Assembly (NCBI GenBank): GCA_000252525.1
Contig: JH611156.1
Coordinates: 578,109 to 642,108, forward strand
DNA from: SAR86 cluster bacterium SAR86A
GTDB lineage: Bacteria > Pseudomonadota > Gammaproteobacteria > Magnimaribacterales > D2472
Reading direction: 5' to 3'
Length of the DNA: 64,000 nt
Below are positions 51,798 to 58,911 of this stretch, in pieces (positions within the stretch are counted from its first letter, which is position 1; each line of letters opens with the position of its first letter). The notes beneath the pieces are model-generated. The model was not told the DNA's origin, searched no databases, and saw only the letters and a list, made by a program, of their open reading frames with translations. A program made the translations under genes and the position numbers.

Positions 51798-52301
51798 ATG
51801 AATACCGATTTAATAAAATATATTACATTTTTTAGTTTGTTTATTGTTTGTATTAATATTAATGGGAAAATTATGCTTGATGAAAATGACAAATTAGTGT
51901 CACCCCTACCAAAACCTTATGATGGTTTAGTATATTCTGTCGACGACCTGAAGTCTTTTATCGTCTCTACTGTGAAATCAAACAAACAACCAATTATTAT
52001 ATTTGGTGCAAACTGGTGTCCTGACTGCAGAATATTTTCTGGAACAATGGACATACCAAAAATTAAATCATACATAGATGATCATTTTGCAATCTTGTAC
52101 ATAGATGTAAAAAGATATGAAATAAACATGCAGTTAATGGAAGAATTTGGAATTCCATCTGCAGAGGGGATTCCAAGAGTTTTAGTATTTGATAAAAGAA
52201 TGAATCTTATAAATAATTCAAATACAACTGAATGGAGAACTGCTAGGGAACGATCAAGTCAAGAAATTTTTGATTTCTTTCAAAACATGACTACTAATTA
52301 A
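51798..52301 (+). CDS. Secreted thioredoxin-fold protein
   Basis: 167 aa with a signal peptide and WCPDC active site. Confidence 0.7.
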   Translation: MNTDLIKYITFFSLFIVCININGKIMLDENDKLVSPLPKPYDGLVYSVDDLKSFIVSTVKSNKQPIIIFGANWCPDCRIFSGTMDIPKIKSYIDDHFAILYIDVKRYEINMQLMEEFGIPSAEGIPRVLVFDKRMNLINNSNTTEWRTARERSSQEIFDFFQNMTTN

Positions 52302-53568
52302 ATTGTCTACTTGCACTTGCAAATATTAGATAAAAAATTCCACCAAAAATTAAAACAAAGGAGCATATGTAAAAAATTGAGCTCCATGAATTAGTTATCT
52401 CAAGAATAAATCCTGCAACTATAGGTGCAAGAATTGCAGCAATCATTCCGATGCTTCCTGCAATTCCAACTAACGAACCAGTATATTTTGGACCAAGGTC
52501 TGCATGATTTACTCCAAATCCACCAGCACAAATACCTGAACAAATGTTAATTAAGCAGAGCAAAATTACAGCATTTAAGAGAGAGTCCTCAAAAGAAATT
52601 AAATATAAGAAAAATGCAGATCCAAAAAATCCTATTGAATTGACAGTTTTTCTAACCTTGATAACTTCATAACCTTTTTTAATTAAGTTATCAGCCAGAA
52701 AGCCTCCCAATATCAGCGCAATCATTGCGACTAAACACGGAATTACAATTGAATATATAAATGCATTTGAGCCTAAATCTATTCCCATACCGCCTTGAGA
52801 GACAGGAGCGTTAACATATTTTGGTAAATAAGATAAAAATGTGTAAAGAGACCAATTATTACAAAATGTAGCAACAGTGATTGCCATAAATGGCTTATTT
52901 TGTATAAGTTTGAGAAATGGTATCGATGAAGCAGAAGTTTTTGCAGGTGCCTCTGATTGTATTAATTCTAATTCGTTTTTAGATAAATTTTTATTGCTTT
53001 CAGGAAAAGATGTAACAGTTGTGTTCCAAAAAAAATACCAAAAAAAGCCTAAAGCTCCAAAGGTATAAAACACCCATTCCCATGAATAATTGGCTATGAT
53101 TAAGGCAGCAACTGCATATCCAAACAAAGTTCCAGCAGCAATTCCGCTATTTGTGAAACCTACAGCTCTAGTCCTTTCTTTAAAAGGTATCCATCTTGCA
53201 TATATAGCATGCCATGATGGGAAAGTTACGCCCTCTCCAAGCCCCATTAATATTCGAATTAAAATCAGCCACCACAATCCTTGATATGAGAAAAAAGGAG
53301 TAATTATTGTAAAAAATGACCATATTAATAGAGCATATCCGAGAACTTTTTTACCGCCATATCTGTCTGCTAAATATCCTCCAACTATCATAGTAATCAT
53401 ATATCCAAAGTAAAAAGATCCTAAAATAATTCCAACTTGAGATTCAGACCAGCCAAATTGCTCTTGCATTGGAATTATTGCTACAGAAATGTTTACTCTA
53501 TCGATGTAACAGATAAATACAGCTAAAAATGATAAAAAGATAATCTTAAATCGGTATGGAATAATCAT
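52294..53568 (-). CDS. MFS transporter, anion:cation symporter (ACS/SLC17-like) family
   Basis: 424 aa, 12 TM; N-terminal DRVNISVAI and GGYLADRYGGKK motifs. Start overlaps the P450 stop (ATGA). Confidence 0.8.
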   Translation of the reverse strand: MIIPYRFKIIFLSFLAVFICYIDRVNISVAIIPMQEQFGWSESQVGIILGSFYFGYMITMIVGGYLADRYGGKKVLGYALLIWSFFTIITPFFSYQGLWWLILIRILMGLGEGVTFPSWHAIYARWIPFKERTRAVGFTNSGIAAGTLFGYAVAALIIANYSWEWVFYTFGALGFFWYFFWNTTVTSFPESNKNLSKNELELIQSEAPAKTSASSIPFLKLIQNKPFMAITVATFCNNWSLYTFLSYLPKYVNAPVSQGGMGIDLGSNAFIYSIVIPCLVAMIALILGGFLADNLIKKGYEVIKVRKTVNSIGFFGSAFFLYLISFEDSLLNAVILLCLINICSGICAGGFGVNHADLGPKYTGSLVGIAGSIGMIAAILAPIVAGFILEITNSWSSIFYICSFVLIFGGIFYLIFASASRQFN

Positions 53569-54950
53569 TCAGGAGTAAATTTTATTGGCATCTCTTGAAT
53601 TGCATGTACAAAATTATTTGGTGCTACTTTCCAGTCACCATTCACTTCAAAATCACTAAAACGAGTCAAAAACTGTTTATAAAACTCTCTTAATTGCATC
53701 AATGCAACAGGCTTGCCTAAGCAAGTATGTCTTCCAATACCAAATGCTAAGTGTTTTTCAGCATTTTCTCTGAGAATATCAAACTTGTCTGGATCTTTGA
53801 AAATTTCTGGATCTCTGTTAGCAGCTCCATACCACAAAGAAATTTTTTCGTATGGGCCTATCATCTGTCCATTTATTTCAGTTTCCTCTAAAGATGTTCT
53901 TCGCATATGGATAACCGGTGATACACATCTTACAGTTTCATTTATAAAGTTTGGTAAGAGCTCATAATTCTCTAATAAAATTTCTTTTTGTTTTGGGTTG
54001 TCATGAAGTAACTTAATTCCGCCACTCATAGTATTTCGAGTTGTATCATTTCCTGCAAAAATTATTAGCAGCCAAGAACCATCAAGAAATTCATCTGAGA
54101 GTTGTTGACCTTCGATTTCTGCATTGGCAATTGCACTCAACAAATCGTCGGATGGATTTTCTCTTTTATTTTTTAAAATGAATCTCCCATATTCAAACAT
54201 TTCGTCAACCATTGCATTAAACATATCAACCATTGCTGGATCTGGTGTACTGTCAGTTTTTCCTTCGTTCTGTTCTTTTATCATTTCATAGGTAAAGTAT
54301 TGAGCCAATTCTAGAAATTCCATCCAAGAAACAAGTTTTTGCCTATCTGCTTCTGGTATGCCAAGGATCTCTGATAACGTAAATATTGGTAATTGCTGAG
54401 AGACTTGCTGTACTAGATTGCATTCACCCATAGGAGCGATGACATCTAATAATTCGCCAACTTTAACAGACACTTTTTTTTGTAATTCATCTACGTAACC
54501 AGATTTAAAAAATGGCATGTGTTCCTTACGAAGCCCAAGATGCATTTCTCCATCTAAATTTAGCATATGGTCGATGGTAGATTTAAAAAGTTTTGGGTGT
54601 CTATTTTCTTCAGTGCCTAAAGTTAATAAATTTCCAGTAGAGTATTGTGAGGAGAAGATCTTAGGATTCATAGATACATGTTTTATGTCGTTATATGAAG
54701 TTAAGACCCAGTAACCAGGCTCAGGATCTGTTGGCATTGGGTCATGGAAGAATACTGGAGATTTCTCTCTAAGTTCTTTATATAAACTAATTGGTTGTCC
54801 TTTAGTAAATAAGTCAAGGTCGTTCAAAGAGCCTGAAGGCTTATGAGGATATGAAATATTGTGTTTTGGATGATTAATCTTATTACTTAAAATTTCATCA
54901 GATAATATGTATCCTGGGTTTGGATTAGTCACCTCCACCTCCTCCAGCAT
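53565..54950 (-). CDS. Cytochrome P450 monooxygenase (I-helix resembles the CYP153/CYP125 omega-hydroxylase type)
   Basis: Heme loop FGIGRHTCLG, I-helix AGNDTTRN, ExxR (ETVR). Start is ambiguous: ATG at 54950, or GTG at 54932 which has AGGAGG-N5. The tracked TTG at 55031 is unlikely. Confidence 0.9.
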   Translation of the reverse strand: MLEEVEVTNPNPGYILSDEILSNKINHPKHNISYPHKPSGSLNDLDLFTKGQPISLYKELREKSPVFFHDPMPTDPEPGYWVLTSYNDIKHVSMNPKIFSSQYSTGNLLTLGTEENRHPKLFKSTIDHMLNLDGEMHLGLRKEHMPFFKSGYVDELQKKVSVKVGELLDVIAPMGECNLVQQVSQQLPIFTLSEILGIPEADRQKLVSWMEFLELAQYFTYEMIKEQNEGKTDSTPDPAMVDMFNAMVDEMFEYGRFILKNKRENPSDDLLSAIANAEIEGQQLSDEFLDGSWLLIIFAGNDTTRNTMSGGIKLLHDNPKQKEILLENYELLPNFINETVRCVSPVIHMRRTSLEETEINGQMIGPYEKISLWYGAANRDPEIFKDPDKFDILRENAEKHLAFGIGRHTCLGKPVALMQLREFYKQFLTRFSDFEVNGDWKVAPNNFVHAIQEMPIKFTPE

Positions 54951-55548
54951 CTCCACCTGCAACTGTTCCATCTGAGGAAGGATTTGGATGAGTAAGATAT
55001 ATGCTAGACATAAACGCTGTACCGTCTCCAAGAGCTGCAGTTATTTCTTTGAGATTTAGTTTTTCACCCAAATCAGAGTAAGGCTGCACATCTCCAGAGT
55101 CTTTATCTACAATAAGTGCATCTTTTTTTGATACTAAAATAATATCTCCAGAAATTATTACTAAGAAGTATTGATTAAAATTGAACATAGATTTTTTGAA
55201 TCTTTTTCGAAATTTAATCTTGCCAGTCTTCCATGACATTTTTGATATTTCTCTTGAGGAAGAAAGAAAGTACATGTATCCATCATGTGAACTTGGTATA
55301 AATGGAATCATTGAGCTATGAAGATAATCTTGATAATGAGACCATAAAAAATCTCCATTATCACTTTTAAAACAATGAACCATTTTAGAGCTCCATGACG
55401 AGCTAAAAACAATAATATAATCTTCGAATTGTCCTATGATGTTTGGCTTGTAACCTGGAGAAATGTCTCCAACCCATACTGGTTTATTTTTAACTAGGTC
55501 GTATTTTGCAATAGATCCTTTTTTGCCAAAAATTGCTACTTTATCCAT
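54925..55548 (-). CDS. Hypothetical cytoplasmic protein with PQQ/BamB-like beta-propeller-type repeats and a Gly-rich C-terminal tail
   Basis: 207 aa; no signal peptide. A motif recurs four times at about 40-50 aa spacing (YDLVKNKPVW, FKSDNGDFLW, MSWKTGKIKF, VDKDSGDVQP). Tail is AGGDAGGGGGD. Confidence 0.55.
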   Translation of the reverse strand: MDKVAIFGKKGSIAKYDLVKNKPVWVGDISPGYKPNIIGQFEDYIIVFSSSWSSKMVHCFKSDNGDFLWSHYQDYLHSSMIPFIPSSHDGYMYFLSSSREISKMSWKTGKIKFRKRFKKSMFNFNQYFLVIISGDIILVSKKDALIVDKDSGDVQPYSDLGEKLNLKEITAALGDGTAFMSSIYLTHPNPSSDGTVAGGDAGGGGGD

Positions 55549-55565
55549 GAGTGCAATTATATATG

Positions 55566-55602
55566 TTTCAGATATGAGGAGTCGAACTCCTCATATCTGA
55601 AA
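55566..55602 (-). terminator. Perfect 17-bp hairpin between the TBDR gene and the downstream genes (partial terminator or RNA-stabilising stem)
   Basis: TTTCAGATATGAGGAGT-CGA-ACTCCTCATATCTGAAA. No strong T-tract follows on the minus strand. Confidence 0.5.
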
Positions 55603-55607
55603 TAAAA

Positions 55608-57983
55608 TTAGAAGCTATAGGTATATCTCAGCGCTATAGTTCTTGGAGGTATCCACTGCATCCAGTTTCTTGGTCTCCATGATGTGTCATCAACTGCATA
55701 AATATATGCCTCAGTTCTCTTATCAGTTAAGTTATCTATTGATAGTTGAAGCATAGAATTTTCACTCAAGTCTAATCCTAGATTAAAGTTTAGCTTAGTA
55801 TAATCAGGTGAACTTGAATTAGGATTCTCAGCAAAAGTATTAAAGCTATCTCCGTAGTAATTTACGTCCAGTCTTGCATATGTAGGATATGACATTATGG
55901 TCGTGTCATAGACAAGACCAAGATTCCACTGGGTTTCTACAGTATTTGGAAGTCTATCTCCAGCAGAAGCACCTAGAGAATCAATATCAATTGAAGTTTC
56001 TGCAGTCATAGAGCTTCCTGCAAAATCTAAGGAAACTGAATCATTAATAGCGTAAGTAAAGTCGACCTCCCAACCAGAAGTCTCTGCTTTACCTCCATTA
56101 AAGTTATATCTCCAACCACAACCAGGTGTGACTTGGATTATTATTCCGTCCCAATCAACATCAAAATAAGTAACATTAGCCGTATAGTTTTCACCTCTAG
56201 CTTTTACTCCGAATTCAGTTGTCTCAGCCTCATCAGAATTGAATCTTCTTGAGAAGTTTGCTTGTGCTGCTTCATCACTGCTACAGAATGGAGGAAGTGG
56301 TGCCTGATTTCCACCAGGTCTATACCCTGCTGCTTGAGTTGCATACAAGGTCAAGTCCTCGTTTACTAAATAACTAACAGCATATTTCATTCTAGTATCA
56401 GACTCTGAACCAGATAATTCAGCACAGTCAGTTCCTGCCGGATCAGTACCGTCACAGCCAGTGCTATCCATATAAAAAATACCGTATTGATATGTTTTTG
56501 ATGCATCTTCAATTTCATAATCTCTAATGCCTAATGTAAGCGTTAATTTGTCATTTACGTTGTAGTCAAACTGACCATAAAGAGATGTCTCTTCTTGCTC
56601 ATTAAATTCAGTATATGAAGCATAATACAAGTAAGGATAGCCTAAATGATCCGAACAAAATGGTGGACAATATGCTGTAGCATCATAAACAGCCGGATCA
56701 ACTCCAGCAGCAATCGAAGTAACATAATCTAGCCAATATGCATCGACTGCATATTGAGTTTGTGAAATTGAATTAGGTTGTTCCTCAAATTTATAGTTAT
56801 AGTAACCAATAGTCCACTCAAATTTTCCAGGTTTTGAAACTAGTCTCAATTCTGTAGTATCTTCATAATATTTGTCACCATCCACAATAAGCGGTGCAGG
56901 AACATAATCATCCATATCAATTCTAGCCCAGTCAGTCACAGCATCTTCTTCTACTGTTCTATCAGAGATAATTAAATTTGCATCGAAAGCACCAAAATCA
57001 TATTTAATATTTGCTATTAGTGTTTCTCTTGTAATATCTTCAGACTCATCTGCTGCTAAAGCATGAGCATATTTTGGGTCATAGTTTGTAAGTACCGAGC
57101 TTCCATTAGGATAATCAGCTTCAGTTGCTGCAAATCCCGATATCGCACTCAAACGCGAACATGTTGGATCACCGTCCCAGTTATACCACCAACTTGATGC
57201 TTGAGGACAGCCTTCAACATAAACGTCAGCACTACCAGGCTTGCTCTGACCTGGTTCTAAAATACCATATGCTTTGTTATTAAAATTAACATACCTCAAA
57301 CTTCCAGTTAATTTGCCCCCATTATTGAATCCTAGTGTGATCATAAGTTGAGAATCATCTTCTTCACCAACAGTATTGCCTGTCTGAATATTTTTATAGA
57401 TACCTGGAGAAACAAGCTGCGAATATACAGCTCTAACAGCAAGACTGTCAGTTAGAGGCATGTTGTACATCATTTCGATGCTAGTCTCAGGATCATTAGC
57501 TTTAACTTTATCACCATAACCAAGCCTAATTTTTCCATAAGCTGCGCTTGAATCTGGTTTATTAGTTATGTATCTGATTGTTCCACCAATAGCATTAGAT
57601 CCATAGAGTGTGCCCTGTGGCCCTCTAAGTACTTCAATTCTTTCAATATCAAATAAACTCATTAGTGAGCCGTTTATTTCATCAATATAAGTAGAAGAAG
57701 TTCCTGATGATCTTTGCGAAGTAGATGTATTTAGCCCCCTGAAAGTATAGTAATTTGATCCGCCAGGTGTCGACACACCAGCAATTGATCGCAAATAGTC
57801 TTCAGGATTAGTTATACCTCTCTCTTCTATTGTAGCTTCTGTAATTACAGATATGTTCATAGGTATTTCTTGAACAGTTTCAGCTTTCTTATTTGCAGTA
57901 ACAATCACTTCTTCAACTTCTTGAGAAATCAAGACGAATGGAGCCAAAATTAGTGCGCATAAAATTGTCTTCAAATTTTTCAT
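55608..57983 (-). CDS. TonB-dependent outer-membrane receptor
   Basis: 791 aa; signal peptide, TonB box/plug (EEVIVTANKK...IPMNISVIT), C-terminal beta-barrel ending RYTYSF. Confidence 0.92.
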   Translation of the reverse strand: MKNLKTILCALILAPFVLISQEVEEVIVTANKKAETVQEIPMNISVITEATIEERGITNPEDYLRSIAGVSTPGGSNYYTFRGLNTSTSQRSSGTSSTYIDEINGSLMSLFDIERIEVLRGPQGTLYGSNAIGGTIRYITNKPDSSAAYGKIRLGYGDKVKANDPETSIEMMYNMPLTDSLAVRAVYSQLVSPGIYKNIQTGNTVGEEDDSQLMITLGFNNGGKLTGSLRYVNFNNKAYGILEPGQSKPGSADVYVEGCPQASSWWYNWDGDPTCSRLSAISGFAATEADYPNGSSVLTNYDPKYAHALAADESEDITRETLIANIKYDFGAFDANLIISDRTVEEDAVTDWARIDMDDYVPAPLIVDGDKYYEDTTELRLVSKPGKFEWTIGYYNYKFEEQPNSISQTQYAVDAYWLDYVTSIAAGVDPAVYDATAYCPPFCSDHLGYPYLYYASYTEFNEQEETSLYGQFDYNVNDKLTLTLGIRDYEIEDASKTYQYGIFYMDSTGCDGTDPAGTDCAELSGSESDTRMKYAVSYLVNEDLTLYATQAAGYRPGGNQAPLPPFCSSDEAAQANFSRRFNSDEAETTEFGVKARGENYTANVTYFDVDWDGIIIQVTPGCGWRYNFNGGKAETSGWEVDFTYAINDSVSLDFAGSSMTAETSIDIDSLGASAGDRLPNTVETQWNLGLVYDTTIMSYPTYARLDVNYYGDSFNTFAENPNSSSPDYTKLNFNLGLDLSENSMLQLSIDNLTDKRTEAYIYAVDDTSWRPRNWMQWIPPRTIALRYTYSF

Positions 57984-57998
57984 AATTTATATCCTCTC

Positions 57999-58025
57999 AA
58001 ACAAAAAACCCAGCAAAAGCTGGGT
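57999..58025 (-). terminator. Intrinsic terminator inside the TBDR leader (attenuator)
   Basis: Minus strand ACCCAGC-UUUU-GCUGGGU followed by UUUUUUGUUU. Ends about 15 nt before the TBDR SD and ATG. Confidence 0.75.
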
Positions 58026-58032
58026 CAATTCA

Positions 58033-58075
58033 ATAAAAGCAGGTCCCAGCTATGCTGCTACTCCCCGGCTTTTAT
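58033..58075 (-). promoter_or_regulatory. GC-rich 43-nt structured element (candidate aptamer/antiterminator) in the TBDR leader
   Basis: A perfect 8-bp closing helix AUAAAAGC/GCUUUUAU encloses CGGGGAGUAGCAGCAUAGCUGGGACCU. The internal AGCUGGG can alternatively pair with the terminator 5' arm CCCAGCU. Confidence 0.45.
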
Positions 58076-58089
58076 GTAAGTTAATTTTT

Positions 58090-58117
58090 AACATACTTAA
58101 GTGAGTATATATGTAAA
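58090..58117 (-). promoter_or_regulatory. Candidate sigma-70 promoter for the TBDR operon
   Basis: Minus strand TTTACA-N16-TATGTT. Confidence 0.3.
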
Positions 58118-58172
58118 AAAGAATTAAACTAGTAATTTAAGAAAAAAAGTATCTATTTTTTATATCCAATAT

Positions 58173-58257
58173 TGGTAGGGATGGAGGGAGTCGAACCCCC
58201 ACGCCTTGCGGCACTTGGTTCTAAGCCAAGCGTGTCTACCAGTTCCACCACATCCCC
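58173..58257 (-). tRNA. tRNA-Leu (anticodon UAG), class II with long variable arm
   Basis: 85 nt; acceptor GGGGATG/CATCCCT, anticodon loop CTTAGAA, variable arm TGCCGCAAGGCGT, encoded CCA. Confidence 0.9.
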
Positions 58258-58303
58258 AGGCATTGGCATTATATATAGATAAATTGTATTAGTGGAGTTT
58301 TTT

Positions 58304-58702
58304 TTAAAGGTCGTAGTTTATTAAATCTTTTCTTTTTTTATGAACGTATGTAAGACCTATAAGCGTTATGACTCCTAAAATTGAAGCTACAATATCGTGA
58401 AAGTGATATCCTTCATATACTAAACCACATACTTTTCCAAGAAGCATAAATACGCACAGATAGATCAGAACAGTACCTAATTGAACTTTTGAAGATGAAA
58501 AAATAAACCTTATCAAAATATAACCTGAAGCTACAAAAACTCCCGACATTGTTCTAATAAAGTTCGCTAATGGTGTATATCTCTCAACGCCATCAAAAGC
58601 CGGATACCATGAAACAAAATTAGGTCCCAGCATAGCCCAAAGACCCATTACGCAAGATGTGATGCCTATAATTAATAAATAGCCTTTAAAAATTGTATTC
58701 AT
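58304..58702 (-). CDS. 4-TM membrane protein of unknown function
   Basis: Start at the ATG at 58702 (MNTIFKGYLL), overlapping the upstream small ORF stop (ATGA). Architecture is similar to the protein at 51337-51777. Confidence 0.5.
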   Translation of the reverse strand: MNTIFKGYLLIIGITSCVMGLWAMLGPNFVSWYPAFDGVERYTPLANFIRTMSGVFVASGYILIRFIFSSSKVQLGTVLIYLCVFMLLGKVCGLVYEGYHFHDIVASILGVITLIGLTYVHKKRKDLINYDL

Positions 58703-58911
58703 ATCACTCCCAACATATAAAGTGCTAATAAAAAAGATAAGACTCCAATGCCCATCCAAGTGTACATTTCCTTATAATTGTTAAATTTATATGAATTAAT
58801 TGCAAGAAAACAACAAAAAATTGGCGCGACAACTAAAACACCATAACCAATTAAAATTGCTAATGGAATAAAAGCCAAGAACAAAAATAATTGCAAGATA
58901 AATTTATTCAT
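58699..58911 (-). CDS. Small 2-3-TM membrane protein (70 aa)
   Basis: Hydrophobic throughout and translationally coupled to the downstream gene. Confidence 0.4.
   Translation of the reverse strand: MNKFILQLFLFLAFIPLAILIGYGVLVVAPIFCCFLAINSYKFNNYKEMYTWMGIGVLSFLLALYMLGVI

Follow-up and report, generated by a model that had tools for sequence, protein, structure and literature searches.

What decides whether transcription passes the intrinsic terminator that stands directly before a TonB-dependent receptor (TBDR) gene of SAR86 cluster bacterium SAR86A? The question is raised by a 64-kb stretch of its genome (64,000 nucleotides of contig JH611156.1, assembly GCA_000252525.1, positions 578,109 to 642,108; hereafter the window, with all coordinates given on its minus strand), in which tRNA-Leu(tag) at 58257-58173 is followed by a 189-nt spacer and then by the TBDR start codon at 57983. 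An earlier note on this DNA, made from the letters alone, had seen in the spacer a conditional terminator resembling a riboswitch, with a GC-rich element, closed by an 8-bp helix, as the presumed aptamer.

Here, we find that a small open reading frame (ORF) with an invariant arginine codon, CGG, traverses the whole of this presumed aptamer, and that the same leader heads an arginine operon in sister lineages. Directly observed in the sequences are the ORF, the invariant CGG, the geometry around it, the two competing pairings and the association with the arginine operon. Given that an Arg-codon leader ORF with a terminator and an antiterminator before an arginine operon is the classical signature of attenuation, and that the window's element is homologous, we give both the same reading: the leader is likely a ribosome-mediated leader-peptide transcription attenuator of the trp/his type, which would sense arginine via charged tRNA-Arg. 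The arginine link of the window's own TBDR leader would come to it through homology to the arg-operon leader.

A conserved leader that every transcript must read through

Evaluating the spacer, we found the canonical terminator that the earlier note had placed near the Shine-Dalgarno (SD) sequence, with its hairpin, U-tract and directly following SD GAGAGGA all in place (Table 1). It is the sole terminator-like site within 57500-58800, where shuffled sequences give 0.6. The GC-rich island was borne out as well, with a GC content of 0.40-0.43 across the element versus 0.18-0.27 in its flanks. Across leaders the terminator and the gene start lie 15-39 nt apart; no promoter has room between the terminator and the SD, and the claim that every TBDR transcript must read through the terminator stands. 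Within the window the element is single: its composite pattern occurs once (0 in 100 shuffles), and a covariance model of the leader family run over the window with filters off returned one copy at 92.8 bits and a runner-up at 16 bits. A second leader copy was found neither with this model nor with a relaxed regular expression over all loci, and no two-leader locus was seen.

A protein-based search with the TBDR gave 55 SAR86 loci, in which the leader is kept 5' of TBDR orthologues whose amino-acid identity falls as low as about 68% (27 further distinct versions), with or without an adjacent tRNA-Leu. The conserved blocks are the -10 box TATACT, CGG(G), (U)AGCUGG, the terminator arms and the SD. 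Metagenomes were scanned with a pattern that consisted of AGCTGG, a gap and a terminator and that demanded neither an ORF nor a CGG; about 70 of the 120 loci returned are the same element, and every one of these has the small ORF. In total, SAR86 genomes and marine metagenomes yielded 82 distinct leader versions, to which the ORF statistics below refer, with promoter statistics given for 79 of them.

Neither the leader nor its arg-type relative matches a family in Rfam 15, where cmscan of the whole window reports tRNA only at gathering thresholds, and the earlier note's view that no recognised riboswitch class is present held both at gathering and at E <= 10. Three small RNAs gave sub-threshold scores (RyhB 21.5, PrrF 22.4 and SorY 19.4 bits against thresholds of 55, 90 and 111; E about 0.2). 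As these scores are far below gathering and the alignments are mostly terminator, we rejected an identity with any of the three.

An arginine codon at a fixed place in a small reading frame

In all 82 leaders frame 0 is open from the start codon on, whereas stops interrupt frame +1 in 71 and frame +2 in 68, and the chance of an open frame jointly in 11 lineages of less than 72% similarity is about 9e-6. The ORF measures 14 codons in 73 of the 82, and indels within it, in aligned leaders, are multiples of three. Its CGG is codon 10 in 74 leaders and codon 11 in 8 longer versions, and lies four codons from the stop in 79 and three in the other 3. The stop is a TAG overlapping AGYUGG in 75 of the 82 and otherwise lies no more than a few nt from AGCUGG. 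In 77 leaders, 16 nt separate CGG from AGYUGG. The footprint of a ribosome is established to reach roughly 12-15 nt 3' of its P-site codon, and the spacing fits this size.

CGG is also the rarest sense codon in the window, with 2 occurrences among 17,490 codons of long ORFs (0.3% of Arg codons, compared with 71% for AGA), and is comparably scarce in 129 related loci (33 of 197,701 codons; 0.5% of Arg codons). CGC is rare in the window too, at 8 codons. An AGA-CGG tandem occurs in 39 of the 82 leaders, and the arg-operon versions usually carry two or three Arg codons. Apart from the Arg at CGG the encoded peptides are unconserved (e.g., MLKINLHKSRGVAA, MINTNTRLRRVPAI, MNFFNQINTRRQLI, MHNLSLQNRRGTAF).

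The promoter of this small ORF is conserved along with it. Its -10 box reads TATACT in 68 of 79 distinct promoters (TATAAT, TATCAT or TATTAT in the remainder), with a 16-nt spacer to the -35 position in 73. That position holds TTTACA in 41 of the 79, the arg-operon versions among them, and TAGTTA, TAGCCA or TAGTTT in TBDR-type leaders. The TTTACA-N16-TATGTT pair at 58117-58090, which had been proposed earlier as the promoter, is present as sequence; it is not conserved, and it would start transcription inside the ORF. All 79 leaders have the start codon 6-9 nt after the -10 box (9 nt in the window) and 0 of 79 have an SD-like motif ahead of it. With TATACT as the -10 box, the ORF would have to be leaderless or nearly so, and we take it to be probably leaderless.

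Two further patterns lie at the promoter. A CTAG-containing hexamer at 58126-58133, at the same place in loci L003-L030 and mostly conserved among TBDR-type leaders, might act as a weak -35 element or be bound by an additional regulator. An inverted repeat over the -10 box and the ORF start (58093-58108; ATACT-CACTTA-AGTAT in the window, ATACTC-AAAA-GAGTAT in L003 and L008) is confined to the closest relatives and may function as an operator or form a 5' hairpin.

The directly preceding tRNA-Leu in the window and the weak sub-threshold small-RNA resemblances might suggest that the element is constitutive, serving to end tRNA-Leu transcripts or standing as a small RNA gene of its own, while a promoter elsewhere drives the TBDR. 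We regard this as barely credible, given that the leader keeps its own promoter and stays ahead of the TBDR or arg operon in loci where further genes or cassette insertions part it from the tRNA, that the 15-25 nt between terminator and gene start are filled by the SD, and that the Rfam scores are far under gathering and come mainly from the terminator. The proviso in the earlier note, that the hairpin might serve merely to end tRNA-Leu transcripts, is thus not borne out.

The same leader heads an arginine operon

Assessing what follows the leader in the metagenome set, we found two kinds of downstream gene only, a TBDR orthologue or argF'. The latter encodes a protein of 333 amino acids that is an N-acetylornithine carbamoyltransferase (NCBIfam NF003384, 531 bits against a cutoff of 288), and it heads an argF'-argG-(argE)-argB-argC-argH operon in sister lineages. 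TBDR and arg arrangements occupy the same chromosomal site, between tRNA-Leu and a major facilitator superfamily (MFS) transporter gene, within a conserved frame of acyl-CoA dehydrogenases, ORF212, DUF4345, tRNA-Leu(tag), a variable part, MFS and ORF167. The variable part takes the form leader-TBDR-(ORF207)-(P450) in the window and most TBDR loci; elsewhere it is leader-arg operon, TBDR (without leader)-leader-arg operon, P450-leader-arg operon or Rieske oxygenase-leader-arg operon.

Two partners for one strand

The earlier note had pointed out that AGCUGGG can pair exactly with CCCAGCU, the 5' arm of the terminator, as an alternative, and this pairing proved to be conserved across leaders, with AGYUGG invariant. 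The 8-bp closing helix was likewise recovered as P1 in the minimum-free-energy (MFE) fold of the window's spacer (z = -2.76). The free RNA folds into a long imperfect hairpin composed of P1 and P2, with the terminator formed too. P2 columns are 73% paired. Predicted energies in the window are -16.2 kcal/mol for the hairpin, -9.9 for the antiterminator and -13.7 for the terminator, and average -14.4, -12.2 and -13.0 over the 82 leaders. Hairpin stability exceeds that of shuffled sequences at a mean z of -2.4 over 11 lineages, and most leaders are predicted to form the protector hairpin.

The terminator arms and AGCUGG are nearly invariant, as would be expected if every arm base must serve two partners, whereas the terminator loop occurs in 21 different sequences. 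The core antiterminator pairs are kept at about 100%, and the few variants retain both pairings by wobble or compensation. In L009 and L029 a C to U change in the 5' arm is compensated by G to A in the 3' arm and leaves a G.U in the antiterminator; in L014 an A to G change yields a wobble in both terminator and antiterminator; and in L018 and L020 AGUUGG gives an antiterminator wobble together with a compensatory G-C to A-U change in P2. Three leaders (L016, L019 and L026) have lost a G from the 3' arm and yet retain the 5' GC that the antiterminator alone requires. Column-wise covariation of terminator and antiterminator did not exceed shuffle controls (A/U-rich columns pair by composition), and RNAalifold on a 56-sequence MAFFT alignment recovered only the terminator and 3 invariant CGG:CUG pairs, with P1 and P2 shifting register between subfamilies.

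Short invariant motifs within an otherwise variable leader could also be what a protein or a trans-acting RNA requires, binding CGG and AGCUGGG and controlling the terminator in the manner of TRAP, PyrR or Bgl-type systems, with the ORF incidental. Such a factor would leave the conserved frame, start and stop unexplained, the leaders contain no repeated binding motifs, and the conserved neighbourhood offers no candidate regulator gene; we hold this to be highly improbable.

With the alternative pairing conserved, one half of the earlier proposal stands, namely the competition for a conditional terminator. The other half, a ligand-binding aptamer, is not supported, as the small ORF spans it and its interior varies. 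A metabolite-binding riboswitch, with a 43-nt P1-closed aptamer, possibly for arginine or a TBDR substrate, and a switch free of translation, would account for the competition and for a hairpin stabler than shuffles; the invariant unpaired CGG could in principle touch a ligand, and a new class would be compatible with the absence of an Rfam match. It would leave unexplained, however, why the ORF is open in 82 of 82 leaders, why the distance from -10 box to start is fixed, why the stop is fixed relative to CGG and AGCUGG, and why indels come in threes. The interior of the supposed aptamer is variable except for CGG and UAGCUGG, and the helices do not covary beyond controls. Lastly, the invariant triplet is in frame and is an Arg codon, matching the arg operon that the same leader heads in sister lineages, which points to ribosome-mediated attenuation and renders the riboswitch very unlikely.

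How the proposed attenuator would work

From these sequences we infer where transcription starts, that the ORF is translated, that ribosomes stall at CGG and that the leader responds to arginine; these steps would combine as follows. Transcription would start about 7 nt after the -10 box TATACT, at or a few nt from the ATG at 58094, and the 14-codon ORF would be translated as a leaderless message. In the absence of a ribosome, P1 (codons 7-9 with the sequence after AGCUGGG) and P2 (codons 12-13 with (U)AGCUG) would sequester AGCUGGG, and with this strand locked the terminator and its U-tract would form and the TBDR would be off. When arginine is plentiful, the ribosome would reach the UAG stop, where its footprint would mask AGCUGGG, and the terminator would again form. 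When arginine is scarce, charged tRNA for CGG would be limiting, and a ribosome stalled with CGG in its A site would cover the 5' strands of P1 and P2 while leaving AGCUGGG, 16 nt downstream, exposed to pair with CCCAGCU ahead of the synthesis of the terminator's 3' arm. The result would be read-through into the TBDR and probably also into ORF207, the cytochrome P450 gene and the MFS gene.

Constrained folds of five divergent leaders recover these three states: masking the RNA as by a ribosome with CGG in the A site gave AGCUGGG:CCCAGCU before the 3' arm exists, and masking it as by one at the stop codon gave the terminator only.

What weighs against an attenuator reading

Several results count against this attenuator reading and we gather them here. 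On the structural side, the check proposed earlier, covariation in orthologous leaders, failed for P1 and P2, whose column-wise covariation is not above shuffled controls; a test of cognate versus non-cognate P1 duplexes was weak (-1.4 kcal/mol, with 33% of foreign partners equally good); and the protector hairpin is weak in L015 and L025, where it is no more stable than shuffles. In the comparison of energies that had been suggested, the window's antiterminator is weaker than its terminator, so read-through would rely on kinetics. On the side of translation, 8 of the 82 leaders start with GTG, a poor leaderless start in E. coli, and a tRNA-Arg(CCG) gene is not among the 7 tRNAs of the window or in 50 loci, which have only Arg-TCT and Arg-CCT. 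As for the regulated genes, the TBDR, P450 and MFS (anion:cation-symporter-type) proteins themselves have no evident link to arginine. Finally, the window leader has a single Arg codon, whereas classical attenuators carry several regulatory codons.

This single Arg codon, together with K/R-x-R patterns in many TBDR-type peptides, would also suit a translation-dependent attenuator whose signal is not the charging of tRNA-Arg, with the slow CGG instead setting a timing window that reflects overall translation capacity or the coupling of RNAP and ribosome (pyrBI-like), or the nascent peptide arresting the ribosome with free arginine or another small molecule (as in the fungal AAP, TnaC and SpeFL), and the evidence from ORF and geometry would serve it equally. 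Set against this are peptides that are very diverse apart from the Arg, unlike known arrest peptides, and an arg-operon link, an Arg codon identity and frequent AGA-CGG tandems that all favour arginine specificity; on balance we consider such a signal unlikely. Among specific arrest candidates, a macrolide-type +x+ motif was rejected since it is absent from arg-type peptides, and the conserved peptide by which arrest sensors of the TnaC, SpeFL or Erm leader kind contact the exit tunnel is lacking, as the peptides share nothing except the Arg at CGG.

Features of the locus

Table 1. Positions of the leader elements and of the regulated gene in the window (strand as read; remarks refer to the set of leaders where several are meant).
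Feature	Position	Strand	Remark
-35-like hexamer TAGTTT	58126..58131	-	16 nt 5' of the -10 box; weak consensus match
-10 box TATACT of the leader promoter	58104..58109	-	conserved in all aligned orthologous leaders
Leader small ORF, ATG + 13 codons + TAG (58052-58050), predicted product MLKINLHKSRGVAA	58050..58094	-	
P1 5' strand AUAAAAGC (codons 7-9)	58068..58075	-	pairs with 58040-58033, closing the protector hairpin; MFE folds
CGG Arg codon (codon 10), proposed sensor codon	58065..58067	-	in every leader
P2 5' strand UAGC (codons 12-13)	58057..58060	-	pairs with GCUG 58050-58047 inside the antiterminator strand
Antiterminator strand AGCUGGG	58045..58051	-	complement of CCCAGCU 58024-58018; shares 2 nt with the UAG stop
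P1 3' strand GCUUUUAU	58033..58040	-	MFE folds
Intrinsic terminator hairpin GACCCAGC-UUUU-GCUGGGUU	58007..58026	-	98.7% of cells paired; 5' arm CCCAGCU (58024-58018) is also the antiterminator partner
Terminator U-tract, U6 G U3	57999..58008	-	first two U inside the hairpin 3' arm
Shine-Dalgarno GAGAGGA of the TBDR gene	57992..57998	-	immediately 3' of the terminator; AGAGGA conserved
TBDR gene, regulated gene, 791 amino acids	55608..57983	-	

Downstream of the TBDR, the same strand carries ORF207, the cytochrome P450 gene and the MFS transporter gene. As listed, the P450 ORF (TTG at 55031) overlaps ORF207; its homology starts near 54914 (region 53565-55548, minus strand), which is probably where the true start lies. 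The 4-nt overlap between the P450 stop and the MFS start (53565-53568) suggests translational coupling and a single TBDR-ORF207-P450-MFS operon.

A rewired leader at a variable site?

The segment from tRNA-Leu to MFS (52294-58257 in the window; also in L022, L058, L061, L067, L088, L090, L094 and L125) is a variable cassette site across SAR86, and its contents (TBDR, ORF207, P450, a Rieske-type oxygenase and the arg operon) appear in at least 5 different orders. Fragments of the tRNA recur within it. In L009 (383-2804) the stretch from the intact tRNA to the leader holds two cassettes of about 1.2 kb, bracketed by three direct copies of the tRNA 3' end, TTCGACTCCCTCCATCCCTACCA; two such copies occur in L008 (1470-2816); and L003 has a tRNA 3' fragment beside the leader at about 2790 (compare 58173-58200 in the window). 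In its organization tRNA-Leu(tag) looks like an integration hot spot. In one metagenome locus, L140, the argF' start codon behind the leader reads ATA and not ATG, there is no ArgF' match and the MFS gene comes next; the locus may represent a decaying or deleted arg operon in transition.

No arg gene lies within the 64-kb window. SAR86A has been reported to be without arginine synthesis, whereas SAR86B carries the genes in otherwise syntenic contigs, and a large share of the natural SAR86 population is arginine-auxotrophic (Dupont et al., PMC3358033). This auxotrophy, the missing arg genes and a chromosomal frame in which the arg operon and the TBDR cassette are swapped lead us to a tentative evolutionary reading, for which we would put the chances somewhat short of even: SAR86 lineages losing arginine biosynthesis may have kept the arg attenuator of the lost operon and rewired it to the TBDR (together with P450 and MFS), such that the CGG-stalled ribosome serves as a starvation sensor and scavenging replaces synthesis. 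If so, an amino-acid attenuator would govern uptake in a natural auxotroph, working on a leaderless mRNA through just one sensor codon that is nearly unassigned, and a source of arginine or nitrogen would be indicated as the TBDR substrate.

To summarize what the locus offers, the leader supplies a concrete candidate signal, arginine starvation as read by the ribosome, for a TBDR without a known substrate, would connect this TBDR with the arginine auxotrophy known from some SAR86 populations' members, and would illustrate how a regulatory leader can outlive the operon that it once controlled. It also carries a caution, in that orphan riboswitch candidates of AT-rich genomes need to be checked for tiny ORFs.

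Comparison with known systems

Leader-peptide attenuation as such is a textbook mechanism; an arginine-specific example, or any attenuator from SAR86, is not described in Rfam 15 or in the literature searched, and the form seen here, with one invariant copy of the rarest codon in an apparently leaderless ORF, is unusual. Set beside the cobalamin and thiamine pyrophosphate (TPP) riboswitches that precede TBDR genes, the SAR86 leader is alike in placing a conditional intrinsic terminator with a competing antiterminator in a TBDR leader, but it matches no Rfam riboswitch, and its sensor region appears to be a reading frame and not a conserved aptamer.

Two systems offer upstream ORFs for comparison. 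In Bordetella, an upstream ORF is reported to give post-transcriptional control, with copper as signal, of an operon that includes a TBDR gene (PMC9426467). An upstream ORF controlling a TBDR-containing operon is the precedent that this case offers for the SAR86 leader, and signal, organism and sequence all differ. In Salmonella, the leader ORF of speF (orf34/SpeFL) is reported to contain consecutive arginine codons, at which the behaviour of the ribosome at low and high arginine alters mRNA conformation and downstream expression (PMC6386406). The SAR86 leader would likewise use arginine codons in an upstream ORF to steer downstream expression, and SpeFL differs in its longer ORF with an SD, its polyamine gene target and its lack of sequence similarity. 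SpeFL control further involves Rho and mRNA dynamics and not a compact intrinsic terminator.

Leaderless sensing has its counterpart in mycobacteria, where leaderless polycysteine small ORFs act as cysteine-responsive attenuators. There, as proposed for SAR86, translation of a short leaderless ORF registers how much of a given amino acid is at hand and sets the expression of a downstream operon; the phylum is another, the codons are runs of Cys codons and the terminator/antiterminator architecture is different.

The closest resemblance is to the trpL, hisL, leuL, thrL, pheL and ilvL attenuators. In common with these, the SAR86 leader has a short ORF in which the cognate amino acid is encoded; right before the first structural gene, a predicted 1:2 protector followed by a 2:3 antiterminator and a 3:4 intrinsic terminator; a stop codon sited so that a terminating ribosome would mask strand 2; and, in the sister lineages, a biosynthetic operon (argF'GEBCH) to head. 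Its apparent use of a rare codon as sensor also has a precedent, as leuL uses the rare CUA codon. It departs from them in that the amino acid is arginine, that its regulatory codons number one to three, of which one CGG is invariant, and do not form a run, that the ORF has no SD, begins 6-9 nt after the -10 box and is probably leaderless, and that in the window the leader precedes not a biosynthetic gene but a TBDR.

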